Of a stretch of DNA of 64,000 bases, positions 12,150 through 35,723 are shown piece after piece. The DNA is from an uncultured virus (IMG/VR IMGVR_UViG_3300042934_000632) (taxonomy: Duplodnaviria; Heunggongvirae; Uroviricota; Caudoviricetes), in the IMG/VR virus record IMGVR_UViG_3300042934_000632; one strand, 5' to 3'. The notes beneath the pieces are model-generated. The model had not been told where the DNA came from and ran no database searches. It was given only the letters and a program-made list of their open reading frames with translations. The translations under genes and the position numbers were made by a program. Within the stretch, counting starts at the first letter, position 1; each line of letters starts with the position of its first letter.

Positions 12150-12698
12150 ATGAACCCAGTTCGAGAAGAAAATAAGATTACAATTGCTGAAACCGTTGCT
12201 GTAAAAACCTATATGACACGTCACCTCAGCGAGCTGCAATCGGAGCGTACTCGTGCTGCTACAGAGGAAGTCGATAAAGGCGCTACTGCTGAAATTCCAG
12301 CACGTAACGTTGATGTAATCACAGATGAAATCTGGGAAACGTTCAAAGATATTCGAACTATTGAAAATCTCCTTGAACAAGCCAACATTCAAAATTATGT
12401 TGAATGGGATGGGCAAAAGATCACTGTTAGCGAAGCAATCTCTTTCGCTAAACAAATTCGTAGCCAAATTGATACGCTGAAGAGTCTCGGCCAACGAAAG
12501 AAGATTGATAAGGTTCCAAATCGTCCATTTGGCACAACGGATTCGGTTCCCCAAATTCGTGTGGCTCTTTACGATCCTGATAAATACCGTGAATATGCGG
12601 CAAAGCTGGAACGTCAAGTCAATGCTCTTTCTAGAGACATTGATCACTCGAATCACACGAATTATATCGTGTTTGACGCTTCAAAATATATCGGATAA
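12150..12698 (+). CDS. coiled-coil protein, DIP1984-like family
   Basis: ITIAE...ANIQN...TVSEAI...YDP...IDHSN pattern. Confidence 0.55.
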   Translation: MNPVREENKITIAETVAVKTYMTRHLSELQSERTRAATEEVDKGATAEIPARNVDVITDEIWETFKDIRTIENLLEQANIQNYVEWDGQKITVSEAISFAKQIRSQIDTLKSLGQRKKIDKVPNRPFGTTDSVPQIRVALYDPDKYREYAAKLERQVNALSRDIDHSNHTNYIVFDASKYIG

Positions 12699-12758
12699 TA
12701 TGGAGGTAGACATAATCATCTTCCTCTTTTACGTAACCTGAGCTAGCACTTTGATGCT

Positions 12759-13608
12759 GCTCAGCTTGAAGGATATAACGTTTATACAGTGTTTTCGCTA
12801 TAGACCGTTGACGCCTTAGCTGCTGAGGTTATATGCGATGTACGGCACTCGAAGACCTTGCATCCTTCAAGCTGAGCGAAGAAGATTATACGACGTGCTG
12901 AAGAGTAGCCATATCCGACGCCTGAGCGAACAGGGGCTAGGCTTTGAAATCCCCTGACTCCTAAGACATTAGCGTCCGAATTCTTCTCCCCAGCTTGAAG
13001 AGTATAAGTGGTAGTAGGCCTGGAAGCAGCCATCTTAAGAGTGGGACAGCGGCTATAACTTGCTCCGTGACACTGGGCTAACTCGGGTAGCGGATAAAAG
13101 CATTTTATAGAGAGGAAATAAGGAGGCACCCCGTAACTGGTAAGGCCGACCTTTCCCTTTAGCGTAATAGCACACCATTTATACTTTTCAAGCTGTTTGG
13201 GGAACAGCAATCGTCTATTTCCAGAAAATCAGCCTCTATCATGAGGGAGGAGAGAAATCTCCTCCACAGCTTGAAGCTCCCAAGTTAAATAAAATAGTCG
13301 TTCAAATCGACGGCGTGGGTTATCCTCGCCAGCCATTGGAGGCACTTGGGAGTTACAAGCTGTGGGAACACAGCAGCAGGAAGATGTGAGCAACAGGGTT
13401 CTAGCCAGCTGACCTGGTTAGACGCGTATCGGCGGTGGTTATCCAGCGTGCGAGACACAACCAAACCAACTTGACATTGGTGTTACCTTAGGCAGGTACA
13501 AGAACCAACGTATAAGCGAATAACGGTTGACACCTTACGATAGTCACATCTAACATACTCCTTTGGATATTTCCTTTCGGAAATTCGGAAAAGTCTCTGC
13601 TTCCTGCT
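12759..13608 (+). ncRNA. array of five stem-enclosed structured RNA cassettes
   Basis: closing stems 12759-12774/12862-12877, 12878-12886/12981-12986, 12991-13012/13174-13195, 13264-13285/13344-13365, ~13375-13383/13600-13608; no credible + strand ORF. Confidence 0.7.
13008..13178 (+). ncRNA. 23S rRNA L11-binding (H43-H44) domain-like RNA with internal insertion
   Basis: GTAGGCCTGGAAGCAGCCATCTTAAGAGT...AGCGTAATAGCACAC resembles the rRNA consensus GTTGGCTTAGAAGCAGCCAYCATTTAAAGA..GCGTAATAGCTCAC. Confidence 0.7.
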
Positions 13609-13677
13609 TTATTTTAATATTCTCTAGGGGGACACATGGTGTGTCCTCTTTTCCATTTCTATAAGGCGGTGATATTT

Positions 13678-14073
13678 ATGAATTACCTTGATCCACGAGA
13701 AGGAAAAGAAATCACAGGTAGTACGGGGGAAATCCGCGTCAGACTCGTTGGTGGATCATTTCATGAATCTGCCTTTGCTACTGTTAAAGAGGGGGACGAA
13801 GTTACCCTTCAAAAAGAACCCAAAAATAAATATGACAGATATGCTATTGTAGTGCTCTCTGAAAATAACCGTGTTTTGGGTTATATTGCCAATAGAGTAG
13901 AAACTATTGGGAGAAACAAAGCAACAAATTCCGCAGCGGATGTATATAGACATATCAACGATAGAACATCAGCTATCATAATTGATAAGAGTCCAAGCTC
14001 TGCCGTACTTTTGATTAATGCTTCGAATGAAGTTTTTTTAAATAGATTAAAGGAGGAGAAGTTCGATGATTAA
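13678..14073 (+). CDS. HIRAN domain protein
   Basis: LQKEPKNKYDRYAIVV...LGYI motif. Confidence 0.8.
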   Translation: MNYLDPREGKEITGSTGEIRVRLVGGSFHESAFATVKEGDEVTLQKEPKNKYDRYAIVVLSENNRVLGYIANRVETIGRNKATNSAADVYRHINDRTSAIIIDKSPSSAVLLINASNEVFLNRLKEEKFDD

Positions 14074-14359
14074 TTCTAGATCATCTTCTTTAGTAGAATT
14101 AATAGAGATGTCTCTCTTAGCTAATCACGAAATTCTAGTTCTTTTATCTCGTAACTCTGGTTTTAGTTCACAAGCTGGAGAAAAAGAAGTAGGTCGTATT
14201 TTAAAATCTATTGGTTATATGAACGAACCTTGGTTTAAAGTTGAATGGAGCATCAGAAGAACTACCAACAATTATCCATTAGAGGATCTTATCATTATTT
14301 CTTCAACGGACTTTAATAATGAAAATCTTTCTAAGATTTATCTTAGAGATATGGATTAG
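14066..14359 (+). CDS. paralogue family B member with C-terminal tag
   Basis: WFKVEW...NNYPLEDLI. Confidence 0.65.
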   Translation: MINSRSSSLVELIEMSLLANHEILVLLSRNSGFSSQAGEKEVGRILKSIGYMNEPWFKVEWSIRRTTNNYPLEDLIIISSTDFNNENLSKIYLRDMD

Positions 14360-14373
14360 GAGGTTCGTTCTAT

Positions 14374-14655
14374 ATGATTACAGAAGAAATTATTTTAAGC
14401 CATATTCGTCATGGAAAAGTGATAGAAGTTTTGCTATCTCGATATTCTGAATACGCTGAACAAGCAAAAGAAGATGAAATCGGAAAAATTACTGGCAAAC
14501 TGGATGATGATGGTGATCTTGAAGGTATATGGTTTCAAGTCGAATGGGATTCAGGCGATGTGAATTATTATCATTTATCAGATCTGATTTTCATTAATTT
14601 TTCTACGGATAATTACAGTATGCTTTCTCTTCTCCAAGATATCGACGACGTATAA
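14374..14655 (+). CDS. paralogue family B member with C-terminal tag
   Basis: WFQVEW...NYYHLSDLI; ends NYSMLSLLQDIDDV. Confidence 0.7.
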   Translation: MITEEIILSHIRHGKVIEVLLSRYSEYAEQAKEDEIGKITGKLDDDGDLEGIWFQVEWDSGDVNYYHLSDLIFINFSTDNYSMLSLLQDIDDV

Positions 14656-14795
14656 AGTAAAGTCACAATAGGATTTATACGCTTCGATATAGTCAAGACC
14701 CGTAGTCTATTACTGGGTTGAAGCCACGTAACCTTCCATCGGAAACGTGGCTGTCTATAAATCTGCCGAAGATCCTATTGTGACTTTACTTTATA
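14651..14795 (+). ncRNA. hairpin cassette with UAUAC/CGAA internal loop
   Basis: 25 bp closing stem TATAAAGTAAAGTCACAATAGGATT / GATCCTATTGTGACTTTACTTTATA. Confidence 0.65.
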
Positions 14796-14812
14796 ATAAG
14801 GTGGGAACATTT

Positions 14813-16972
14813 ATGAGAACGTTAGTCCTTACTCGTGGTATAATGGCTTCTTCAAAATCAACATGGATTGCTGAAAATGGTCTTGCACCTTTTACTTTAT
14901 CTAGTGATAACTTGCGTCTACTCCATTCTGCTCCACAGCTTCAAGAAGATGGCAAGCAGGTAATAGCGGGATCGCAAGAAGGTAAGATCTGGAAACTTTT
15001 ATTTGAAGTTTTGGAGCGACGTATGCAAAACGGCGATTTTACCGTCATTGATGCAACACATATTACTTCGAGTTCCATTTCTGAGTATCGTGAACTGGCT
15101 AATAAATATCGTTATCGCGTGTTTGTAGTGGATTTTACTAATGTTCCTTTGGAAATAGCTTTAGAGCGGAATAAAAATCGTGAAGAATATAAGTATGTTC
15201 CAGAACATAAGATTGAAATAGCTTATGCTAAGCTTTCAGAAAATCATGTGCCTTCTTATGCGAAAGTTATTAAACCAGAAGAATTCTGGGATCATGTTTC
15301 ATATACAAAAATTGATTACAGCTCTTATCGCAAAATTCATCATATCGGGGATGTTCATGGATGCTACAGTGCATTAATGACTTACCTTTCAGGCGAAATG
15401 AAGGAAGACGAGTTGTATATTTTTGTTGGTGATTATCTAGACCGCGGCATTCAGAACCGCGAAGTTTTAGAATTCCTCATTCAGATTAAAGACCTTCCAA
15501 ATGTTATTCTTCTTGAAGGTAATCATGAAACTCATCTTCGCAAATGGTCAATGGATGAAACCGTTAAAAGTTTAGCATTCAACCACTATACCGAAAAAGA
15601 GATTCATGATGTTAATAAGTCCGCTGTTCGTGAACTGTGCAGAAAGTTCAGACAGGTTTGTTATTATGAATATTACGGCAAAACAGTGCTCGTCACTCAT
15701 GGAGGCTTATCCTGCATTCCAAACGAACTTGCTTTGATCTCGACTTCTCAATTTATTAAAGGAGTAGGAAATTATGAAGTTGATATTGATGCTATTTTCT
15801 CGGCTTCTGAACAAGATGGAACGTACCAGGTCCATGGTCATCGCAACATCTTCAGACTGCCTATGCAAGCCGCTGAGCGTTCTTTTAACCTGGAGGGTAG
15901 AGTTGAATCAGGAGGAGACTTAAGGGCTCTTACACTAACTCCTGAGGGGTTTCAAGAGCATTGTATCCAGAATCATGTTTTTACAACAGAACATTCTCCA
16001 ATGCCTCCCGTTGTAGGTTCCAAAACAACTACAGACAATTTCATTGAATACCTTCAGTCACACAAAATGGTTAAAGAAACACAGATAACTGATCATATTT
16101 CATCTTTTAACTTTACACGTAAAGCATTCAATGATGGCGTTTGGGATACGCTTAACATCAAGGCTCGCGGCCTTTTTGTGAATAAGCATACTCGAAAGAT
16201 CGTTAGCCGATCTTATGATAAGTTTTTTAATATTGACGAAGTTCCAGCTACAAAGATGGGAACATTAGCCAATACCCTGGAATTTCCTGTGATTTTGTCA
16301 GAAAAACCGAATGGATACCTAGGTATTATCGGGTATGATGAGGAGACAGATGAACTGATCTACTCTTCCAAGTCTGAAACTCGTGGTACTTATGCGGTAT
16401 CATTCAGAAAACTTTTCGAAGAAAAAGTTCCTGTTGAAATACGTGCTTGGCTTAAAGGATATCTTTACGGAAATGACGTGTCGATAACTTTTGAGGTTAT
16501 TCTTCCACAAGAAGATCCACACATCATAGAATATAAAGAGAATACTTTGATCTTACTCGATATTATCCAGCGAAATGTTCAGTTCCAAAAGAGATCTTAT
16601 TCCGAGGTTGTTGAGCTCGCAATGAATCTTCTTCTTCCATATCGTAAAATCAAATATGTCTTCCATAACTGGTTAAGTTTCTATCACTGGTATCAAAACG
16701 CATCTCAAGATTATTCTGTTAAAGAAGAAGGGTATGTCCTTGAAGATAATTCAGGTTTTATGACAAAGATAAAATTACCGTACTATCTTTTCTGGAAGCA
16801 AATGCGTACAGCAAAATTCCAGGTGAAGATGGAGGGCTATATGCTTCCTCAGTGGTTGCCGCCAATTCCTGACGATCTTAAAAATTTCGTTGGGTGGGCT
16901 AAACAGCAAGATCAGGAGTATTTGAAACGCGTGGATGTTATCCAGTTGCGTACAGATTACGAGGGCTCTTAA
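14813..16972 (+). CDS. Pnkp-like RNA repair enzyme: kinase + metallophosphoesterase + RNA ligase
   Basis: RGIMASSKST P-loop variant and IDAT; GDVHG/GDYLDRG/GNHE/HGG/HGH; EKPNG and EGYV...KIK ligase motifs. Confidence 0.85.
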   Translation: MRTLVLTRGIMASSKSTWIAENGLAPFTLSSDNLRLLHSAPQLQEDGKQVIAGSQEGKIWKLLFEVLERRMQNGDFTVIDATHITSSSISEYRELANKYRYRVFVVDFTNVPLEIALERNKNREEYKYVPEHKIEIAYAKLSENHVPSYAKVIKPEEFWDHVSYTKIDYSSYRKIHHIGDVHGCYSALMTYLSGEMKEDELYIFVGDYLDRGIQNREVLEFLIQIKDLPNVILLEGNHETHLRKWSMDETVKSLAFNHYTEKEIHDVNKSAVRELCRKFRQVCYYEYYGKTVLVTHGGLSCIPNELALISTSQFIKGVGNYEVDIDAIFSASEQDGTYQVHGHRNIFRLPMQAAERSFNLEGRVESGGDLRALTLTPEGFQEHCIQNHVFTTEHSPMPPVVGSKTTTDNFIEYLQSHKMVKETQITDHISSFNFTRKAFNDGVWDTLNIKARGLFVNKHTRKIVSRSYDKFFNIDEVPATKMGTLANTLEFPVILSEKPNGYLGIIGYDEETDELIYSSKSETRGTYAVSFRKLFEEKVPVEIRAWLKGYLYGNDVSITFEVILPQEDPHIIEYKENTLILLDIIQRNVQFQKRSYSEVVELAMNLLLPYRKIKYVFHNWLSFYHWYQNASQDYSVKEEGYVLEDNSGFMTKIKLPYYLFWKQMRTAKFQVKMEGYMLPQWLPPIPDDLKNFVGWAKQQDQEYLKRVDVIQLRTDYEGS

Positions 16973-16999
16973 GAGCCCTTTCTCTTAGGAGGTGAGACC

Positions 17000-17419
17000 A
17001 TGTCATATCATTACTATACAACCTCAACAACTTCGACAACTTATAGTGGTTATTACAATACAAGTCAAAGAAAGAAAGCTGCTAAAAAACACAGACCCTT
17101 ATCAGAAGAGTCAGAATTACTATCCATCATGATATCCGACAAATTAAAAAGGAATAAGGAAGTATTCATAAGCCTTAAAATGGATACCCGTATTTTAAGG
17201 GATTTGAATAGGGTCTCTGGGGGTACGATAAATCAGACAACTGTTTTAAAAGTACTCGGTGTTTACGTGAGTTCCTTTGGAAATCATAGCGTTATTACTC
17301 AGCATCCTGACATTTTAGCAGGAAGAGATATTAAAATATCTTTTTGTGATTTGGAACCAAAATTTGTAAATGAATTCGATACGGAAGATATGTTAATCAT
17401 ACTTCCTGATTTTGAATGA
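17000..17419 (+). CDS. hypothetical protein with C-terminal tag
   Basis: RBS AGGAGGTG; ends TEDMLIILPDFE. Confidence 0.7.
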   Translation: MSYHYYTTSTTSTTYSGYYNTSQRKKAAKKHRPLSEESELLSIMISDKLKRNKEVFISLKMDTRILRDLNRVSGGTINQTTVLKVLGVYVSSFGNHSVITQHPDILAGRDIKISFCDLEPKFVNEFDTEDMLIILPDFE

Positions 17420-17424
17420 AGAAT

Positions 17425-17545
17425 CGCCTAATCAAAAGAGCATACTTATTATACGAACTGATTTGCCTGCCCTCGATGGAGGGTCGCTGACAGTAAGTCG
17501 TTGTGCTTACCTGTTCCGAAGTAAGTATGTTCCTTTGATTAGGCG
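17425..17545 (+). ncRNA. hairpin cassette with UAUAC/CGAA internal loop
   Basis: CGCCTAATCAAAAGAGCATACTTAT-TATAC-GAAC...GTTC-CGAA-GTAAGTATGTTCCTTTGATTAGGCG. Confidence 0.65.
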
Positions 17546-17904
17546 CATATGAGACATCTTTACTCATGCTGTTAAGAGATGGCAGCCTTCTCGTAGGTCT
17601 ATCCTCCGAGGAGTACGAATCGGCTTCGTATCGCGTGTTATGTGAACAAGTCGGCTGGCGTGGTGTGCTGGCTTAATTGAATACCCCAAGTTGCCACATG
17701 CGTAAAGAAAGATCTGAGAACCTAATCACGGTGAGGTTATAAGGACCTAGAGCCATACTTGAGCTAATCCCAGGGAACGTAATTCGAGACGGAAGTATGG
17801 AGAGAGCGATCTCCAGAACCCAAGATCGTAAATCGTAGACGGACGAGGCCATGTCATTACTCAATGTGGTCCTGAATCCTTGCCAAAAAACTTTTTCGCT
17901 GATG

Positions 17905-17978
17905 ACAAGATTAACTCAGTTGGTAGAGTAGCCGCCATTATTGGAGGTCAGTCGCAGGTTCAAGTCCTGCATCTTGAA
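17905..17978 (+). tRNA. atypical tRNA-like element (aberrant anticodon arm, no CCA)
   Basis: D-arm ACTC-AGTTGGTA-GAGT, T-arm GCAGG-TTCAAGT-CCTGC, acceptor CAAGAT/ATCTTG. Confidence 0.55.
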
Positions 17979-17994
17979 AGTGGCGAAACATAAG

Positions 17995-18085
17995 TCAGTA
18001 TTCCGCAGGTATAGCTCAGAGGTAGAGCGGGGCCAGGTTGCTGGTCATGTCGCGGGTTCGATCCCCGTTATCCGTGGAATGCTGA
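17995..18085 (+). tRNA. atypical tRNA-like element with extended acceptor stem
   Basis: D-arm GCTC-AGAGGTA-GAGC, T-arm GCGGG-TTCGATC-CCCGT, 4-6 nt anticodon loop, ~17 bp closing stem. Confidence 0.55.
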
Positions 18086-18212
18086 TGCTTTTAAAAAATT
18101 TACAGCAAGAGGTATTTTCTTCTTGTTTTCTTGCCAATTATTGTTTATATTATCTATAGTGAAAATGTAGATAATATCTGGGCAGGAAAGTAAACCAAGG
18201 AGCTGACACATT

Positions 18213-18632
18213 ATGATTAAGAGATTGCGACCTTTTGTAACTTCTTTCAGCGAAGCCATCATGTCCCAGCACACACATGGGGAAGAGGTATGCGTTGGTG
18301 GAGAAGTTAAACATGTGCTCGACGGCTCCCTATTCCTGAGTGAAAAGGATATGGAAGACACAAATAAGGACCCAGGCGTTTACTTGAAACTAGACGACGG
18401 GGTTGGCTTTAATTATATCGTAGCACCTAAAATCGTTTGCGAACGGTTTGAAAAGGAACATGGTCCCTTACAAGGAGCTGTTGTCCTTGCCGTTGGCAAA
18501 ATAATGGAGCTCGACATGAGGCAGGAGAAAAAAAGAAATGTTACGTTTACGGACCATCCAGAAAAGACCAAGCGCGTGGCTGCGTACTATCTCGGCCTTG
18601 TCCCTGAGCTTAATGAAGAAACTGGTGATTAA
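18213..18632 (+). CDS. stand-alone OB-fold protein resembling the DnaE C-terminal OB domain
   Basis: VCVGGEV...YLKLDDGVG...VVLAVGKI pattern. Confidence 0.5.
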   Translation: MIKRLRPFVTSFSEAIMSQHTHGEEVCVGGEVKHVLDGSLFLSEKDMEDTNKDPGVYLKLDDGVGFNYIVAPKIVCERFEKEHGPLQGAVVLAVGKIMELDMRQEKKRNVTFTDHPEKTKRVAAYYLGLVPELNEETGD

Positions 18633-18664
18633 GGAGGGGTATTCCTCTCCTTGATTATTGGTTG

Positions 18665-18778
18665 TATAGATATTAAAAGAAGCTTTGATTTATACGCGAA
18701 TGACTGCTGATGCCTCCCGATGCGAGGTTTGAGACGTCGATAATTTGCCGAAGATCAAGGCTTCTTTTAGTATCTATA
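18665..18778 (+). ncRNA. hairpin cassette with UAUAC/CGAA internal loop
   Basis: 26 bp closing stem; TATAC-GCGAAT...ATTTGC-CGAA. Confidence 0.65.
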
Positions 18779-18792
18779 TCCATGTTGTTTCC

Positions 18793-18900
18793 TTGAAGGA
18801 AAAGAGAAGCTATACGTAGGCCGTATACTAGAGGCAATTCGTCCACCGTTGGTAGCGGGAGTATATATCTTTATCTGCCGAAACTTTTCTTTTCCTTCAA
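18793..18900 (+). ncRNA. hairpin cassette with UAUAC/CGAA internal loop
   Basis: TTGAAGGAAAAGAGAAG / CTTTTCTTTTCCTTCAA stem; TATAC-GTAGG...TCTGC-CGAA. Confidence 0.65.
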
Positions 18901-18917
18901 CAAAATAATATGATATC

Positions 18918-21531
18918 ATGAGCTTATCTAGGGAAAAGGAAGTGATAGTTTACGTGACCTCGACGCAAGATTTATCTTTAGCCGCTGCGAAAGAAGAGCG
19001 GGGAGTCAGTTCACAACGCTTTACGCATCTTCATCTGCACACACCAGGTAGTTTGCTAGATGGATTTTGTCGTATAGCTGATCTAGTAAAACTCGCTAAA
19101 GAATTTGGTATGGACGCCGTGGGTATTAGTGACCATGGAAATTGCCATTCTCATGTCGAGTTTTTTCAAGCTTGTAAAGAAGCAGGAATTAAACCAATTA
19201 TGGGTATGGAAGGTTATATTACGCCTCACCGTAGTTGGAAAAAACCTGAGTTTACAGCCAAGCATTACAAAAAGCTTTCCTATCGTTATCGCACTAAAGC
19301 AGAGATGCAAGAAGACGGCGCGGAACAAATCGTTATGGATGGCAAGAATCTCGTTCCTAATGAGATCATTGATGCCTATCTCCGTAGTGAATTGGCAAGC
19401 CTAAACCGTTTGATTAAAGATGAGAGAGAAAACGGTAATGATCCAGAGCTGTTGAAGGATTTGTACGCGGCCAAGGATGATACTCGTATCTCAATCAATG
19501 CTTTGATCAGCTCAGGAGATCTTATTTATTCAGCGGTTCCTTCTCTAGCGACAGCAAATCTTTTTGAAATGCGGCCGAAGACGGCACATCTTTTAATGAT
19601 TGCACGAACGAACGAAGGATATCAGAATCTGCTTAAAATCACCAGTATTGCTCAGCTTGAGGGTGTTTATTACAAACCACGTGCTGATTATAAGTTAATT
19701 AAACAGTATGGGAAAGGCATCATTGCTACTAGTGCGTGTCTTGGCGGAGAAATCCCTCAGCTTATTCGTAAAGGGAAAGAAAGACTCGCTAAGAACATTG
19801 CACGGTTTTACCAAAGCTGCTTCGATGAGTTTTACTTTGAGCTACAACCAAGCCATTTGGAAGAGCAACACTATGTAAATGAAGTCCTGATCCGCTGGAG
19901 CGAAGAAATGGATATTCCGCTCGTTGCGACTTCAGATGCTCATATGCTGCGTCCAGAAGACCTGCCTATTCACTCCGCATTAACCAAGATTGGTAAAGCC
20001 CAAGATGATGCGGATATCAACGTTTATGAAAGCTGTTACTTCAAAAGCGCAGATGAAATGCTAGAAGGCGGAATGCCTGTAATTGCACTAGAGAATGCGT
20101 ATCTCATTTCTCAGAAGTGTAATGTTGAGCTTCCCCTCGGTAGAATTCACCTGCCTAGATTCACAGTTCCACCCGAGTATACATCAGACACCTACCTTTT
20201 AGAGCTTACAGACAATGCTTTGTTCCAGATGGCGCTCGAAAAGGATATTGATATCACCGTATATAAAGATCGTTTGAAGGAAGAACTTCTCGTTATCTTC
20301 GAGAAAGGATTTTCTGATTACTTTCTTATCGTTTGGGACTATATTGCTTTTGCGCGGCGTCAAGGCATTCTAGTAGGACCAGGCCGCGGTAGTGCAGGAG
20401 GTTCTCTTGTTGCCTATCTGCTGAAAATCACCAATATTGACCCTATCAAGTATGATCTTCTCTTCGAACGGTTCCTTGACCCTTCGCGTATGGACTTGCC
20501 CGATATTGACAGTGACTTTGATTATGTACGAAGACACGAGGTTGTTGAATATATCGCTGGAAAATATGGTCAAGATCATGTAGCTCAAGTTATTACATTC
20601 GGGTCTCTATCTTCAAAAGCGGCATTCAAAGACGTGGGCCGTATTTTAGGTATTGACCATAATATTATTAACACAATGAATAAACTAATTCCTGTTGTCT
20701 TTGGAAAGCCTTATGGCATTGACAAGGCCTTAGAAGAAGTCGAAGAATTAAGGGAGTATGAAAGACGCTATCCTGAAATGTTCGATCTTGCTCGAAAAGT
20801 TCATTCCCTGCCTCGGTCTACAGGTATTCATGCTTGTGCTCTTGTTATTACACCAGAGCCTATTGAGGAAATGGTACCCTTGATCAAGGGAAAAGCAGGA
20901 GAAATCGTTACCCAGTACGACGGCCCTACATTAGCGGAACAGTACGGTATCCTCAAGGTTGACTTGTTGGGACTGAAAAACCTATCTGTCATTGATATCG
21001 CCCGTAAGCTTGTCCTAGAGCGATATGACCGCGATATCGATCCTGATACATTAGAGTTTGATGATCCGCGCGTATTCAAGACTATTCAACAGGGGCACAC
21101 GGCGGGGCTCTTCCAAATTGAGAGCAGCGGGATGACCAAAATGTTTCAAAGTCTAAACCGCGTTACATTCGATGACCTTGTAGCAGGAATAGCTTTATAC
21201 CGTCCAGGCCCAATGCAGCATATTCCCGACTACTGTGCTCGTGCAAATGGATACACAGAGGTAACTTATCCATGTGAAGAACTGCGTCCTGTGCTAGAAA
21301 AAACGCATGGTATTGCCGTCTATCAAGAATCTATCATGGCAATGTCCAGAGTTATGGCGGGATACACAAAAGCTGAGACTACTAAGCTGCGTAAAGCGAT
21401 TTCCAAGAAAAAAGAAGAGGTTATGCGTCCAGCCTTGGATGAGCTTTTCAAACGAGTCACGATGAATGGCCACTCGGAAGAATTGGCAAAGAAAATCATC
21501 GACATCATCGAGCCTTTCGTAGGCTATGCGT
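18918..21531 (+). CDS. dnaE: DNA polymerase III alpha subunit, exon 1 (start may be GTG 18954)
   Basis: PHP HLHLHT..SLLDG, GPGRGSAGGS, PDIDSDF; ends at ...GYA-T. Confidence 0.92.
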
Positions 21532-22001
21532 TAATAGATGAACGGAAGTGTTCATGAGCGCCCTTGGCGAGCAATCGCCATTGAATAACTAGGTGAATTT
21601 AGGGGAGTCCTGGAGCAACAGTCGTGAGACAGATGTATGGTGACCCTAAGCGAAGTTTTGTGTAGATGGTGGCGGAATAGGTAGACGATAGGTCGGCTTA
21701 GTAGGTTTGGGTTGTGGTTCGAATCCACGATGCGCAATACGCGTAGACGCCGTGACGGTAAAAACCTGGCTATGTGAGGTGCAAATCCTCACCCACTATA
21801 CAAAAAACGTTCAACGACTATTCTTGAAATGGCCATGAGAATTGGCAACAGAAGTAGGGCCTATGCTTATAAAGATAGGCGGGTGAGAGTCCCTTAATCC
21901 GAAGCGCCTAGCATCCTCAGAACTTTGGGGATGGTGATATAGTCTACTCCCTCTCTGCTCGACAGAGAATTCAAAATATGGGGAAACCCAGGGTGAGATG
22001 G
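21532..22001 (+). mobile_element. group I intron without ORF (470 nt) in dnaE
   Basis: interrupts GYAF/NKSH; exon ends in U, intron ends in G; core elements GTTCAACGACTA and GATATAGTCTA. Confidence 0.85.
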
Positions 22002-23211: not shown

Positions 23212-24730
<1,519 letters not shown>

Positions 24731-25726
24731 TAACAATAGCACCTTCGGCCAGTAATGGCCGTCGATCACTCCGTTAAACGGGAGAAGCCCTACATTTGAA
24801 TTGGTGTAGCTGGTCATCCACCGTGCTAAATGCTTATGTTCTTTGAAATATTACAGTTGAAATACTTCAATCAAAAGGTTACGTTCACTCTAGAATGCTA
24901 GAGAGGAATGAACCCTATGGAATCTTATGGTTTTGTTTATGAGACTACTAACAAAATCAATGGAATGAAGTATATCGGTAAATGTGTATATGGTAGAAAG
25001 AATGACTGGGAGAAATACCTAGGCTCTGGGTTGTATCTTAAGCGTGCTATTAAAAAGTATGGAAGAGAGAATTTTATTCGAACGACTCTAGAAGAGGCTT
25101 CTTCCGAAGAAGAATTGCAGTTGCTCGAAGAGAATTACATCAAACGCTTTAATGCGGTTGAGTCTCCTCAATATTACAACATTAAGATGACTTCTATGGG
25201 TGGAGATACATACACAACCAACCCAAACAGAGAGCATATTAGGAAGCTTAAACAGGCCAATATGAGCGGAGAACGAAATCACCAGTATGGAAAACCCAAA
25301 ACAGAATGTATGATTAATTCTGTTAAGGAATCTAACAGGAGAGCTGTCGAAGTTGACGGCGTGTTCTACGAAAGCCAAGTTGAAGCTTGCAAGGCCACTG
25401 GGCTAAAACCCACACTCCTTGCTTATCGTCTTAGCAGTAATCTTTACCCTACCTACATACGTTTACAGCCGAATCAACGTAATAACTCAAAAAACATAAG
25501 CTAAAAGCCTAACGATCATCGAAAGCATAGCCTGTTGAAAGAATACAGGTGAATAAGCGAGTAGAGTACCCCTCAAGCGAGGCCCTGATGCAAAACAGGG
25601 ATAATTCATAAAGGGAAAAGCGGAGCAGCCTACCAGGTCGTGCTGGGGCTGATGATATGATCTCCTCTATAGCGTAGAGCTATAGCCCCATGGAGAGCGC
25701 CTAGCGAGCGCACTTAAAGATATAGG
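24731..25726 (+). mobile_element. group I intron in nrdE carrying a homing endonuclease
   Basis: interrupts SNLC/SEILQ; exon ends U, intron ends G; CCTAACGATCA / GATATGATCT core-like elements. Confidence 0.85.
24908..25504 (+). CDS. GIY-YIG homing endonuclease
   Basis: GFVYETTNKINGMKYIG, YLGSG, YYN. Confidence 0.9.
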   Translation: MNPMESYGFVYETTNKINGMKYIGKCVYGRKNDWEKYLGSGLYLKRAIKKYGRENFIRTTLEEASSEEELQLLEENYIKRFNAVESPQYYNIKMTSMGGDTYTTNPNREHIRKLKQANMSGERNHQYGKPKTECMINSVKESNRRAVEVDGVFYESQVEACKATGLKPTLLAYRLSSNLYPTYIRLQPNQRNNSKNIS

Positions 25727-26683
25727 AGCGAAATTCTTCAAGCTTCTAAAGTCAGTGAATATACCGACTATGGTCTAGAAGACAATATTGGCTTGGATAT
25801 CTCTTGTAACCTGGGTTCAATTAACCTCATCCCTGTTATGCGGAATAAGAGCCTGCGTCAGACTGTTCGTACAGGTATGGACGCTCTTACTGCGGTTGCT
25901 CATACAACGAATATTAAGAATGCTCCTGGCGTAGCTAAGGCTAATGACCTGATGCAATCTGTAGGTTTAGGCTTTATGAACCTTCATGGATGCCTTGTGG
26001 AGCATAAGTTTTCGTATGAAAGTGAAGCTGCTCGTGAATTCGCCAGCGTTATTGCTATGGCGACAAACTTCTATTCTCTGGAACGTTCTATGGAGATCGC
26101 AAAAGAAACGGGTATCAAATACTACGGCTTTGAGAAGTCTACCTATGCATCTGGAGAATACTTCCAGAAATATCTCGAAAATTCCTATCTGCCAAAGACT
26201 GAGAGAGTTGCAAAAGCATTCGAAGGTATGGATCTTCCAGGTCCAGAAGAATGGGCAGCGCTTATGGCTCTTGTGATGGAGCATGGGCTCTACCACGCCT
26301 ACCGACTAGCTGTTGCACCTACAGGCTCAATCTCTTACGTACAGTCCGCTACGGCGTCTATCATGCCCATTATGGAGCGTATTGAGAATCGGACCTATGG
26401 TAATTCCAAAACCTTCTATCCGATGCCTGGACTGAGCCAAGCGAACTGGTATTTTTATAAAGAAGCTTATGATATGGATATGTTCCGCGTTGTTGATATG
26501 GTTGCCGCGGTTCAGGAACATGTTGACCAAGGTATCAGCTTCACGTTATTCTTGAAGAGCGATACAACGACTAGGGATCTCACGAAGATTGATCTGTATG
26601 CCCATCACAAAGGTATCAAGACGATTTACTACGCTCGGACTCGTGATGTCACTAGAGACGATTGCTTGTCTTGTACTGTATAA
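25727..26683 (+). CDS. nrdE: class Ib ribonucleotide reductase alpha, exon 2
   Basis: SEILQ, SCNLGS, APTGSISY, KTIYY, CLSCTV. Confidence 0.93.
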   Translation, partial: SEILQASKVSEYTDYGLEDNIGLDISCNLGSINLIPVMRNKSLRQTVRTGMDALTAVAHTTNIKNAPGVAKANDLMQSVGLGFMNLHGCLVEHKFSYESEAAREFASVIAMATNFYSLERSMEIAKETGIKYYGFEKSTYASGEYFQKYLENSYLPKTERVAKAFEGMDLPGPEEWAALMALVMEHGLYHAYRLAVAPTGSISYVQSATASIMPIMERIENRTYGNSKTFYPMPGLSQANWYFYKEAYDMDMFRVVDMVAAVQEHVDQGISFTLFLKSDTTTRDLTKIDLYAHHKGIKTIYYARTRDVTRDDCLSCTV

Positions 26684-26732
26684 TCAAGGAGCTCATTCTA
26701 AGTCTCCTTGGCAAATAACGAGGAGGCTTAGA

Positions 26733-26918
26733 ATGAATACGGAACTTGTACGAGATATTCGAAAGAAAGACGAGCGAACTCCTGTTGAATATGAATTCCT
26801 GAAACAGAACATGGTTTTATCCATGATTAGCGAGATCCTTGTCGATGTAAGTAAAGACCATCTTTCTTATGAGGAAGGTATTCGATCAATACGAAGCTGT
26901 ATGCAAGATAACCTTTAA
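26733..26918 (+). CDS. small hypothetical protein
   Basis: RBS GAGGAGG before ATG (MNTELVRD...). Confidence 0.55.
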   Translation: MNTELVRDIRKKDERTPVEYEFLKQNMVLSMISEILVDVSKDHLSYEEGIRSIRSCMQDNL

Positions 26919-26946
26919 ATAGTAGATACAAGGGAGAGTATGTCTT

Positions 26947-27915
26947 ATGAAGTATGTATATGATGCGGCGAACTGGTCCGATACGGACGATCATTTTACT
27001 CAGATGTTTTACGAGCAGAATACAAATCAATTCTGGCTTCCTGAAGAAGTAAGTTTGAACGGAGATCTGCTTAGCTGGGAAAGTCTAACCGTGCAAGAGA
27101 AAGAGGTTTATAAAAAGGCTCTAGCGGGGTTAACACTCCTAGACACTGAGCAAGGTGATGTAGGAATGCCGACGATCATGAATCACATTAAAGGCCATCA
27201 GCGTAAAGCTCTACTTAATTTTATGGGAGCTATGGAGAATATCCATGCAAAGAGTTACTCCAATATCTTCCTTACACTAGCTTCTGCTGAGGAAATCCGT
27301 GATCTCTTTTACTGGATCGAAGAAAATAAAGAACTACAGTATAAAGCAGCAACCGTTGTCTCTGTCTACGAATCTATTCAGAACGATGATGAAATTTCAC
27401 TGTATAAGGGTTTAGTGGCTTCTGTGCTGTTGGAAACATTTCTTTTCTATAGCGGATTCTACTATCCGCTTTTGTTCTTCGGACAAGGCAAACTTATGCA
27501 GAGCGGTCAGATTATCAAGCTGATTATCCGCGATGAAAGTATCCATGGTGTTTATGTTGGGCTGCTTGCACAGGAAATTTATAACAAACAGAATACAGAA
27601 GTAAAAACCCAGCTAGATACGTTTGTAAAATCATTGTTTGATGACCTCTACCAAAATGAACTGTTATACACTGAAAGTTTATATGATCCTGTTGGACTTT
27701 CTCATGATGTAAAGAAATTTCTTCGGTATAATGGAAACAAAGCAATGCAAAACCTTGGATTTGATCCGATCTTTGCTGAAGAAGAGATTAACCCTATCGT
27801 TCTCAATGGGCTTAATACTTCTGCTGAATCTCATGATTACTTTAGCATGAAAGGCAGTGCCTATAAAAAGGCGAAAGCTGAAGCAATACAGACTGAGGAT
27901 TTTTATTTCGAATAA
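26947..27915 (+). CDS. nrdF: class Ib ribonucleotide reductase beta
   Basis: [28 protein letters not shown]. Confidence 0.95.
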
Positions 27916-27925
27916 CAAACCTTAT

Positions 27926-27950
27926 GCCTCCTCAGGGAGGCTTTTTTATT
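27926..27950 (+). terminator. intrinsic terminator
   Basis: GCCTCC-TCAG-GGAGGC followed by a T-run. Confidence 0.8.
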
Positions 27951-27989
27951 GTATACTATACATACAATTAACCTTAAGGGAGTGATATT

Positions 27990-28181
27990 GTGTTGCCACA
28001 GGGATTTATCGAGCATCCAGTTATGAGACAAGCTATTCAAGATAGTGCTTGGGATGTCATTGGAGAAATGATTCATCAAGCATCAAAAGCATTGGCTCAT
28101 TTGGAAGTGATCGAAATTGATTCTTTAAAGGGTAATGTCAATAACGAAAATTTTCTTTGCAGACTATCTGACTTTGAATAA
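27990..28181 (+). CDS. small protein with C-terminal tag
   Basis: ends NENFLCRLSDFE. Confidence 0.65.
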   Translation: MLPQGFIEHPVMRQAIQDSAWDVIGEMIHQASKALAHLEVIEIDSLKGNVNNENFLCRLSDFE

Positions 28182-28193
28182 AGGAGGTGTAGT

Positions 28194-28415
28194 ATGTTAC
28201 CAGATATTGATATTGATATGTACCCTTATAGAGCTGCGGGTATAGAATGTACAGCTATGAATATCATAAGCATGATAGTTAAAAAAGCTCCTCCATTAGA
28301 ATCATTCAATCGCGCTCATGCCTTGTCGTATAGCTTTATCAGCCATCCTGACACCTATGAAGGCTTGCTTACTAGTAACGAAAAATGCATGTTTTTACTG
28401 GATGATCAGGAGTGA
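28194..28415 (+). CDS. small protein with C-terminal tag; N-terminus LPDIDID echoes the DnaE PDIDxD motif
   Basis: ends NEKCMFLLDDQE; contains FNRAHALSY resembling DnaE FNKSHS.AY. Confidence 0.65.
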   Translation: MLPDIDIDMYPYRAAGIECTAMNIISMIVKKAPPLESFNRAHALSYSFISHPDTYEGLLTSNEKCMFLLDDQE

Positions 28416-28576: not shown

Positions 28577-28924
28577 ATGTCCTGGGCATGGATCACTGGT
28601 GAACTATCGACTAGAGACGTAACTGAAATCGGATCAAGGAGAGGGAACATTGGATATACTCCGCAGCCTGTCACTTTCCCTGTGTCAAGAGAACAGCAAA
28701 TAGCTAGACCGCTCAATCAGTCTCATATTTATACGTCATTAGATGCTACTGAGTATCTAGTGAATAGTAGTAGGAGTATGCACTATTCAGGTTCCCTAGA
28801 GGAATTTAATCTCATCGTTCGAGATCGCGCTCGCCTGATAGAAAGAGATATTTACCAAACATTTTTTGCTTTTAGCTCCAGATCGAACGAAGATTATATC
28901 AAAAATCTACAAGATATTGATTAG
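28577..28924 (+). CDS. small protein with C-terminal tag
   Basis: ends NEDYIKNLQDID. Confidence 0.65.
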   Translation: MSWAWITGELSTRDVTEIGSRRGNIGYTPQPVTFPVSREQQIARPLNQSHIYTSLDATEYLVNSSRSMHYSGSLEEFNLIVRDRARLIERDIYQTFFAFSSRSNEDYIKNLQDID

Positions 28925-28934
28925 GAGGATTCAT

Positions 28935-29255
28935 ATGGATATCGGTAATGCAATGGGATTAATTAAGGAAGGAAGAAAAGTTGGACGAAAGGCCTGGGGC
29001 AAAAACAATGTATTTGCTTCTTCTTCCAATGATCGTACATGGATTGTTCTTATGCCTGAGTTAAAGCTTCCTGCTTACTCCGCTCAAATTGCTGGAGCAA
29101 AAGTCAATGACAGAACCGCTAAACATATTGGTCATGATACACCACTTAATTCCCAGCCTTACATCGCGCTTTGGGTAGGTGATGGTCGTTGGCAGCCAGG
29201 CTGGATACCTACACAAGAAGACCTCTTGGCCATGGATTATTTTATTGTAGATTAA
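28935..29255 (+). CDS. DUF2829 / Tad2-like protein (candidate anti-Thoeris sponge)
   Basis: MDIGNAM..IKEGRKVGRKAW...WIPTQEDLLAMDY. Confidence 0.7.
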   Translation: MDIGNAMGLIKEGRKVGRKAWGKNNVFASSSNDRTWIVLMPELKLPAYSAQIAGAKVNDRTAKHIGHDTPLNSQPYIALWVGDGRWQPGWIPTQEDLLAMDYFIVD

Positions 29256-35267: not shown

Positions 35268-35404
35268 GCTGGAAGTAGCTTAGAGGGAGAGCGGCCCTGT
35301 GTAGGGGTGTATAAAGGCCGACATGGATATAGTTTACTGTTCAGACAGTGTTCTAAACATGGCGTCAACCTTAGCAGCGATGGTTCGAGTCCATCCTTCT
35401 AGCA
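35268..35404 (+). ncRNA. tRNA-like element (His-like) with ~60 nt insertion in the variable region
   Basis: 8 bp GCTGGAAG/CTTCTAGC, D-arm GCTT/GAGC, possible CT-GTG-TA loop, T-arm GATGG-TTCGAGT-CCATC. Confidence 0.5.
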
Positions 35405-35723
35405 GTACATATCTTTACCGAAGGGGGTGCTGTAAATATTGGATTATTTCAACTACAAAACTGCATGTGAATATATGGCTAAAAACTATTTGGTATCTGG
35501 CCCAGGTAATTATGATTATTATTTGCTGGTACAAGACAAACTTTATGGACAGTTTAGCTGTGACGATACTATATATCCTATTAAACATACACCTCAAATG
35601 CTTGAAGATATGCAGGATGATGCACTATACTGGTATATAGTTGGCGGATGCGGCGTATGGTATGAAAATAAAGCAGAACACGATCCCCGACCTTACGGCA
35701 TTTCCAGGAGGTGATAAACAACT

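Follow-up and report, generated by a model that had tools for sequence, protein, structure and literature searches.

Six structured RNA cassettes with a shared UAUAC/CGAA internal loop around the RNA ligase gene of an uncultured Caudoviricetes virus

The virus record IMGVR_UViG_3300042934_000632, from an uncultured member of the Caudoviricetes, contains a region of about 6 kilobases (kb) in which six cassettes, C1 to C6, enclose unrelated sequences between the same two short strands, UAUAC and CGAA. The question raised by this locus is whether the cassettes are one family of RNA elements and, if so, what the shared internal loop is for. The analysis is based on a stretch of 64,000 nucleotides (nt) of this record, referred to as the window, and positions are counted from its first letter. 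Phage non-coding RNAs are poorly charted, and we know of families in which a common handle surrounds an interchangeable core from eukaryotes and archaea, such as Y RNAs, box C/D RNAs, and pri-miRNAs, and not from phages. In the present locus, six RNAs with the handle, two others closed by long helices, and two tRNA look-alikes that lack an anticodon lie within about 6 kb around an RNA-repair enzyme.

The presence of six UAUAC/CGAA cassettes on the plus strand had been proposed in a first-pass annotation and was borne out by a check of the sequence. All six feature the same order of parts, which is outer helix, UAUAC, inner helix, variable core, inner helix, CGAA, and outer helix. The individual cassettes, with lengths in nt or base pairs (bp), are as follows:

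12759-12877, plus strand: C1; outer helix of 24 positions (20 Watson-Crick pairs, 2 G-U, 2 mismatches); TATAC 12783-12787; inner helix AGUG(UU)/(GG)CACU; loop strands 62 nt apart; CGAA 12850-12853.
12878-12989, plus strand: C2, the weakest member, directly abutting C1; short outer helix of 9 positions, 7 of them Watson-Crick; TATAC 12887-12891; inner helix GACG/CGUC; loop strands 85 nt apart; CGAA 12977-12980.
14651-14795, plus strand: C3; outer helix of 25 bp (24 Watson-Crick and a U.G closing pair); TATAC 14676-14680; inner helix GC/GC; loop strands 86 nt apart; CGAA 14767-14770.
17425-17545, plus strand: C4; outer helix of 25 positions (22 Watson-Crick, 2 G-U, 1 A.C); TATAC 17450-17454; inner helix GAAC/GUUC; loop strands 62 nt apart; CGAA 17517-17520.
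18664-18779, plus strand: C5; outer helix of 27 bp (23 Watson-Crick, 4 G-U); TATAC 18691-18695; inner helix GCGAAU/AUUUGC; loop strands 53 nt apart; CGAA 18749-18752.
18781-18912, plus strand: C6; outer helix of 30 positions (24 Watson-Crick, 3 G-U, 3 mismatches; unbroken core of 17 bp), with a closing C.A in place of U.G; TATAC 18811-18815; inner helix GUAGG/UCUGC; loop strands 63 nt apart; CGAA 18879-18882.

The extents first assigned to C1, C3, and C4 stand, with revised limits for C2 (to 12989), C5, and C6, and the variable part measures 53-86 nt rather than 60-90 nt. The inner helix comprises 2-6 bp, with 41-82 nt further inside. The nine letters of the loop are invariant in all six copies. 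On its outer side the letter 5' of UAUAC is U in all copies except C6, which has C, and the letter 3' of CGAA is G except in C2 (U) and C6 (A). The first inner pair is G-C in five of the six cassettes, so that the conserved core really reads U-UAUAC-G ... C-CGAA-G. The outer helix is free in sequence and nearly constant in length, with 24-30 positions and 0-3 non-pairs in every cassette but C2.

The architecture was compared with chance by a strict descriptor that requires exact TATAC and CGAA, an inner helix of at least 2 bp, and an unbroken outer helix of at least 6 bp. This descriptor matches the window five times on the plus strand (C2-C6) and never on the minus strand, compared with a mean of 0.02 matches and a maximum of 1 in 50 shuffled windows. 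C1 escapes it only because of a C.C mismatch located 4 bp from the loop. When one mismatch is allowed in the nine letters and a helix length of at least 9 is required, the window yields C3-C6 and one site in the open reading frame (ORF) of Pol III alpha, and C1 and C2 are missed. The copies could not be aligned by MAFFT and, therefore, covariance models were bootstrapped from C1 and C4. The model built from these two copies alone (R1), run with filters off on both strands of the 64 kb, gave 28 matches at E ≤ 10 and ranked C5 (30.6 bits), C3 (26.5 bits), and C6 (22.3 bits) directly below its two training copies, followed by a plain hairpin at 19.1 bits. The model rebuilt from five copies, C1 and C3-C6 (R2), scores these copies at 51-73 bits in the window (73.3 bits for C3), with everything else at or below 18.6 bits and the minus strand at or below 15 bits. 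Neither model recovers C2 in the window, which in the case of R1 is due to an outer helix with only 7 Watson-Crick pairs out of 9. The covariance-model check suggested in the first-pass annotation thus succeeded for paralogues that the model had not seen, namely C5, C3, and C6, and found no homologues in related phages.

The five-copy alignment reveals that 94.9% of the cells are paired, compared with 62.3% in shuffled alignments and 44-52% when the partners are slid, and that 15 of the 16 modelled pairs have changed on both sides; none of 500 shuffles reaches any of these measures. The alignment was fitted to the model, but the helices meet the invariant loop without gaps. These results agree with the earlier claim of covarying helices around a fixed loop of nine letters. 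The closing pair adjacent to the loop is U.G in four of the five model-aligned copies. Over all helix positions of the six copies there are 142 Watson-Crick, 18 G-U, 5 A-C, and 3 other pairs. The excess of G-U over A-C, together with the conserved U.G closing pair, fits an RNA of the plus strand only, as had been claimed, and the plus strand is also the coding strand of all neighbouring genes. Folding z-scores against shuffles are -5.96, -0.15, -9.22, -8.09, -9.80, and -3.63 for C1 to C6. The cassettes are an RNA-level structure of the plus strand with an architecture far above chance. Additionally, the loop itself is under selection while the helices drift, since its letters are invariant, whereas both sides of nearly all modelled helix pairs have changed and the cargos resist alignment.

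The variable cores of 53-86 nt carry stable sub-hairpins of their own. None of the 15 pairwise local alignments between cores stands out from shuffles (lowest fraction 0.035, uncorrected), and the only motif common to several cores is GCUGA, in four of the six. A search for antisense targets of the cores in the phage genome gave a longest match of 15 nt, which is near the chance level, and no guide complementarity. None of the eight ORFs that overlap cassettes matches Pfam or PHROG. A permuted or split tRNA was considered and rejected, as ARAGORN reported no gene in 12 permuted constructs of the six cores, with and without the loop strands.

The distribution of the family was examined in a near-identical virus record (G001, 251,543 bp), in which window position 1 corresponds to position 226818 and window position 28235 to position 1, with three differences in 60.5 kb. 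The 3.5 kb at 24727-28234 of the window lie between the ends of the linear G001 record, so that the genome is circularly permuted or the record is slightly incomplete. On the whole of G001, R2 found the five copies and no other at E ≤ 5 (81 candidates scored); the genome-wide R2 searches passed through a lossy first filter. A relaxed descriptor adds six sites with helices of 8-10 bp to the G001 count, and four of these were examined. The two with the exact motif were rejected, as they are located inside ORFs and do not fold in this way. A match to an already described Rfam family, which the first-pass annotation had raised, was sought over the whole window at gathering score and over 12400-19200 at E ≤ 10, and no family was found for the cassettes. 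The latter search returned 12 matches, with only miRNA-type models, far below threshold, on the cassette hairpins. No description of the motif was found in the literature searched, and the jumbo-phage passages of PMC7824862 contain none.

Megablast and blastn searches of the region against 50,697 phage records gave coding matches only. The nearest isolates by Pol III alpha, with about 57% amino-acid identity and conserved synteny, are the Bacillus jumbo phages vB_BauM_KLEB27-3, vB_BceM_WH1, and Edson, and no copy of the cassette was found in these three. Nor did a copy turn up in the flanks of ligase relatives, taken from viral and genome contigs, or of Pol III alpha relatives, taken from viral and metagenome contigs and all at or below 45% identity, and three small neighbouring ORFs used as queries returned no relatives. 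The descriptor scans for homologues gave only 1 and 2 distinct minimal sites. R2 matched none of five whole related phage records and nothing in the flanks of Pol III and ligase relatives (2.33 Mb). It gave three matches with E 0.35-0.75 in 86 kb searched with filters off, and matches in 2 of 151 sampled Bacilli genomes with E 0.3-0.45 (28 candidates scored per genome). One of the matches in the 86 kb, a site in WH1 with an exact UAUACG..CCGAA (L165 14249-14308, minus strand), was judged to be a chance match, with four broken pairs and a location on the antisense strand. The syntenic region of WH1 and Edson, the two B. cereus relatives, features a gene-free gap of about 720 nt (WH1 L165 14129-14852; Edson L166 7183-7906) without a Rfam match, and these gaps may hold non-coding RNAs of their own.

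The cassettes flank a single gene for RNA repair, as had been noted in the first-pass annotation:

14813-16972, plus strand: gene for a fused polynucleotide kinase (AAA_33), metallophosphoesterase, and Rnl1-type RNA ligase, flanked by cassettes.

Its domains were identified as RNA_lig_T4_1 (3.7e-37), AAA_33 (4.3e-16), and Metallophos (2e-15), and the protein matches the RNA ligase family phrog_8238 (3.5e-237). The family occupies 6.1 kb of a genome of about 255 kb, from 2.1 kb upstream to 1.9 kb downstream of this gene, and adjoins the only RNA ligase/kinase gene seen in the window and two of the three tRNA-like genes. Every gene called in the neighbourhood of the cassettes is on the plus strand; these genes encode ThiF, HIRAN, the kinase/phosphoesterase/ligase, Pol III alpha, NrdI/E/F, RecA, ThyA, NrdD, a UvrD-type helicase, and primase. 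The 5' arm of C3 covers the stop codon of ORF 14374-14655 and its 3' arm ends 3 nt short of AAGGTGGG, the ribosome-binding site of the ligase gene. C4 starts 5 nt past the stop of ORF 17000-17419, C5 starts 32 nt past a stop codon, and C6 ends just short of the Pol III alpha ORF (18918). C1 and C2 are located in a 900-nt gene-free array with other structured RNAs, where no cistrons are separated. The array of C1, C2, and the 218-nt RNA listed below lies between a promoter-like site (12673-12701) and a terminator-like site (13626-13650).

Several further RNAs at this locus feature long helices:

12987-13205, plus strand: 218-nt RNA without the UAUAC/CGAA loop; closing helix of 26 bp; abuts C2; folding z-score -3.98.
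13264-13365: hairpin RNA without the UAUAC/CGAA loop; closing helix of 22 bp.
17905-17978 and 18005-18076, plus strand: two tRNA-like genes; 41 and 37 bits with the Rfam tRNA model; cloverleaf folds.

The first two RNAs have no Rfam match. The base of the helix, CAGCUUGAAG/CUUCAAGCUG, is common to C1, the 218-nt RNA, and the hairpin at 13264-13365, and C1, C2, and the 218-nt RNA abut without spacers in a manner that resembles a polycistronic RNA precursor. The tRNA-like genes carry 4-nt loops (UUAU and GUUG) in the place of the anticodon loop, encode no CCA, and are flanked by a helix that lengthens each acceptor stem by 8-9 bp; they may be decoys or processing signals. The recurrence of the long-helix design in the RNAs without the loop and in the tRNA-like genes points to a general route of excision by the helix. 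The Rfam tRNA model found just three aberrant tRNA-like matches in G001, and ARAGORN reported no ordinary tRNA in the whole record, only an odd one at 244722-244795. The third match of the tRNA model, at 35269-35403 of the window (31.5 bits), features acceptor, D, and T arms, but about 80 nt stand where the anticodon arm would be. ORF 35323-35640 starts within this match, the fold of which is no better than that of shuffles (z -1.08).

Other observations concern the surrounding genes. At 13527-13650 about 70 nt separate a promoter-like TTGACA-18-TAACAT from a downstream terminator-like hairpin that has a U-tract, and this segment could encode a small RNA of about 90 nt just upstream of the HIRAN gene, for which 13678 is the likely start. 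ORFs 14066-14359 and 14374-14655, directly upstream of C3, look like paralogues by eye (LLSR...WF.VEW...DLI) and match only PHROGs of unknown function. ORF 18213-18632 (139 amino acids) has an Atlas model that resembles the OB (tRNA_anti-codon) domain of the Pol III alpha C-terminus, with a TM of about 0.6, and to judge from this model its product may be a polymerase domain that is detached from the enzyme and encoded ahead of it. The Pol III alpha gene is split by a group I intron (50.1 bits, 21540-21969), and the NrdE gene is split around an ORF for a GIY-YIG endonuclease of the SegE/I-TevI type (24908-25504). A gene for a Tad2-like anti-Thoeris protein is located at 28866-29255 of the window and one for an Apyc1 anti-Pycsar protein at L186 6188-6964. 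A gene for a cREC cyclic-phosphate-processing domain lies beside one for a Nudt16-like Nudix protein at G001 213866-215018 (L185 13866-15018). Both fit the RNA-repair and counter-defence repertoire of jumbo phages, as it is described in PMC7824862.

Taken together, the six cassettes are quite possibly, if not yet probably, small RNAs of modular build, or elements of a transcript, that have their handle in common. They would form a paralogous family that is transcribed with the plus-strand early and middle genes of a Bacillus-type jumbo phage of about 255 kb. Each module would consist of a variable core and a handle, with the handle made up of the terminal helix and the invariant internal loop. 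The terminal helix, which comprises about 25 bp of free sequence, would be the entry site for a double-strand-specific endonuclease, most simply the RNase III of the host, and an RNase III-type cut in this helix would release the module from the polycistronic transcript. The loop, 5'-UAUAC-3'/5'-CGAA-3', closed by U.G on the outside and by G-C on the inside, would be a sequence-specific platform for a protein, and its 4 x 3 core, UAUA/GAA, may adopt an S-turn like that of the sarcin-ricin loop or loop E. The sarcin-ricin/eukaryal loop E motif (bulged-G, S-turn) has the consensus 5'-AGUA/GAA-3', and S-turn motifs are typical protein-binding sites. With outer helices of 24-30 positions in five of the six cassettes, excision of the RNase III type fits at least as well as cutting at the loop, and such excision would make the loop a binding platform rather than a cut site. 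The cores differ in sequence and fold and, therefore, the six would be distinct small RNAs with a common partner and a common route of maturation. Provided that the RNAs are made, the locus would offer a compact, testable system for the maturation and use of small RNAs in jumbo phages, for the reader of the loop, and for RNA repair beyond host tRNAs.

A number of results weigh against modular RNAs with a shared handle. The family was found in one genome only, so that the covariation is between paralogues. The sequence is listed in three soil DNA runs only, and no RNA run contains the region; the three runs differ from the stretch once (G>A at 16133, in the ligase gene) and, therefore, offer no natural variation to use. 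The phage record encodes no RNase III, dsRBD, or TROVE protein (PF05731, no matches in G001). No recognisable RNA-binding fold was found among the neighbouring ORFs, including ORF 17000-17419, which gave nothing. The scans for promoters and terminators gave no enrichment over shuffles. The outer helix of C2, with 9 positions, is too short for RNase III. In addition, UAUA differs from the S-turn consensus at two of four positions, including the bulged G.

The first alternative is that the cassettes are cis-acting punctuation, in which hairpins for processing or stability of the RNase III type divide a polycistronic mRNA, the loop tunes the cutting of the strands, and the cores have no function. 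This is unlikely, although more probable than the other alternatives. The location of C3-C6 at stop codons, at a ribosome-binding site, and at the start of Pol III alpha fits this explanation, and the helices are long. T7 RNase III sites are also said, in a 2014 review by Nicholson, to include internal loops that limit cleavage to one strand. However, cores of this size with sub-hairpins of their own far exceed the tops of known RNase III sites, C1 and C2 separate no cistrons in their gene-free array, and a strictly invariant 9-nt loop is, to our knowledge, not a requirement of RNase III. Even as mere RNase III punctuation, the cassettes would feature a new specificity element for this step, the invariant loop.

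A second alternative, which is rather improbable, assigns the cutting to the loop. A dedicated endonuclease would cut both loop strands, and the kinase-phosphatase-ligase would heal and seal the ends to give a circular core, rejoined outer arms, or both. All six copies are near the sole Rnl1-type ligase/kinase/phosphatase gene seen, the inner helix would keep the two cut ends of the core together, and each product would present a break in a small loop. Rnl1 ligases seal breaks in small loops of tRNA, and the phage also carries the cREC cyclic-phosphate domain gene. However, the first-pass annotation had linked such excision to archaeal bulge-helix-bulge sites, and this analogy failed: the geometry is that of a 5 x 4 internal loop, no EndA-type endonuclease gene (PF01974) matched at E ≤ 1 in the 251.5 kb of G001, in a search whose control matched in 6 of 14 genomes, and the permuted cores yield no tRNA. 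There is also no candidate nuclease among the neighbours, and an inner helix of only 2 bp, as in C3, would be a poor clamp for the ends. The repair of tRNAs cut by host anticodon nucleases, described in PMC7824862, accounts for the ligase family well enough. A broader form of this idea is equally improbable and invokes an undescribed phage ribonucleoprotein system of handle and cargo that is linked to RNA repair. In this form, a phage or host protein would read the loop and cut there, and the kinase-phosphatase-ligase would reseal, which would yield circular or re-ligated RNAs or renewable decoys that, with the tRNA mimics, absorb an RNA-targeting defence of the host.

A slightly less probable explanation is that the cassettes are decoys or sponges, in which the handle mimics a site in a host RNA, for example the sarcin-ricin S-turn, that is bound by a defence RNase or a host factor, while the ligase repairs the damage. 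The cassettes cluster with an RNA-repair enzyme and with tRNA-like RNAs that lack an anticodon and look like decoys as well, which is consistent with this explanation, as are the wealth of counter-defence genes in the genome (Tad2-like, Apyc1, cREC) and the resemblance of the loop format to AGUA/GAA. However, no counterpart was found in the 151 Bacilli genomes (2 matches, E 0.3-0.45, 28 candidates scored per genome), and the loop alone as bait would leave the variable cores and the long helices unexplained.

A DNA-level element, such as a cruciform or a single-strand DNA hairpin for replication, packaging, or recombination, is very unlikely. Long inverted repeats are indeed present in the DNA, but the 18 G-T against 5 A-C oppositions and the conserved T.G closing pair reveal unequal strands, arms that are 62-97 nt apart extrude poorly, and every copy occupies an intergenic gap and is on the sense strand. 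A small self-cleaving ribozyme with the loop as its active site is the least credible proposal: the xGAA strand opposite a pyrimidine-rich strand recalls loop A of the hairpin ribozyme (AGAA/AGUC) and CUGA-containing words occur in four of the six cores, but no Rfam ribozyme family (hammerhead, hairpin, twister, twister-sister, pistol, or hatchet) matched in 12400-19200 at E ≤ 10, there is no second conserved core element to dock with the loop, and the helices do not accommodate the topology of a hammerhead. Threading by eye led to the rejection of the hammerhead, hairpin-ribozyme, and K-turn readings, as none fits. A retron non-coding RNA was also rejected, as G001 contains no cognate reverse transcriptase (PF00078, no matches).

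The modular RNAs with a shared handle can be compared with several known systems. The RNase III hairpins of phage early mRNAs, for which we take the T7 R-sites and the SP82 sites in Bacillus as the examples, are also located between cistrons and feature about two turns of double-stranded RNA of free sequence that are broken by an internal loop. Near-continuous double-stranded RNA of about 20 bp or more, the RNase III criterion, is present in five of the six cassettes and not in C2. In contrast to the phage hairpins, the cassettes have structured tops of 53-86 nt and an invariant 9-nt motif at six sites, and two copies are part of a gene-free array. Y RNAs and YrlA, which act with Ro (TROVE) and belong to RNA-repair operons of bacteria and phages, share with the cassettes a long terminal helix with a conserved protein-binding irregularity, a variable inner module, and a location beside RNA ligase genes and tRNA-like structures; however, G001 has no TROVE gene and the loop sequence is different. 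The Rfam models Y_RNA and YrlA gave no match on the cassettes at E ≤ 10, and the only YrlA match (21.6 bits, gathering score 69) is over the tRNA-like genes. Box C/D sRNAs are similar in their order of terminal stem, 5' box, variable 50-80 nt, 3' box, and terminal stem, with boxes that form one asymmetric protein-recruiting loop. Unlike in the box C/D K-turn, no tandem sheared G.A pairs are possible in the cassettes; a K-turn is not formed because GA is present on the 3' strand only and the 5' strand reads UAUAC in either orientation. No context of L7Ae or fibrillarin was identified either.

The loop shares with the sarcin-ricin/loop E motif the 4 x 3 format and the GAA strand with a UA step, in all six copies and within a long helix, and from this step a U.A trans Watson-Crick/Hoogsteen pair and a sheared A.G pair would result. 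It differs in having UA for AG, no bulged G, and an extra C.C opposition on the inner side. The archaeal bulge-helix-bulge consists of two 3-nt bulges on opposite strands with a 4-bp helix between them. As in this motif, pairing of the flanks in the cassettes exposes a conserved irregularity that surrounds an insert of any sequence; however, the cassettes have a single 5 x 4 loop rather than a 3-4-3 arrangement and belong to a bacterial phage without a splicing endonuclease gene. Phage T4 encodes small structured RNAs without a known function, the stable RNAs C and D, in its tRNA cluster, and it also has Pnk and Rnl1. The cassettes are likewise small structured phage RNAs next to tRNA-like genes in a phage with a kinase and an Rnl1-type ligase, but there is no known relation in sequence or motif, and they form a six-member family with a shared handle. 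By analogy, the element would work most like an RNase III hairpin combined with a handle of the Y-RNA or box C/D type, and it is a member of none of these families. The nine-letter loop suggests an undescribed RNA handle that is read by a protein or a nuclease. On the sequence of this one genome, the motif would be new and its kind known, that of a shared protein or nuclease handle on structured RNAs.

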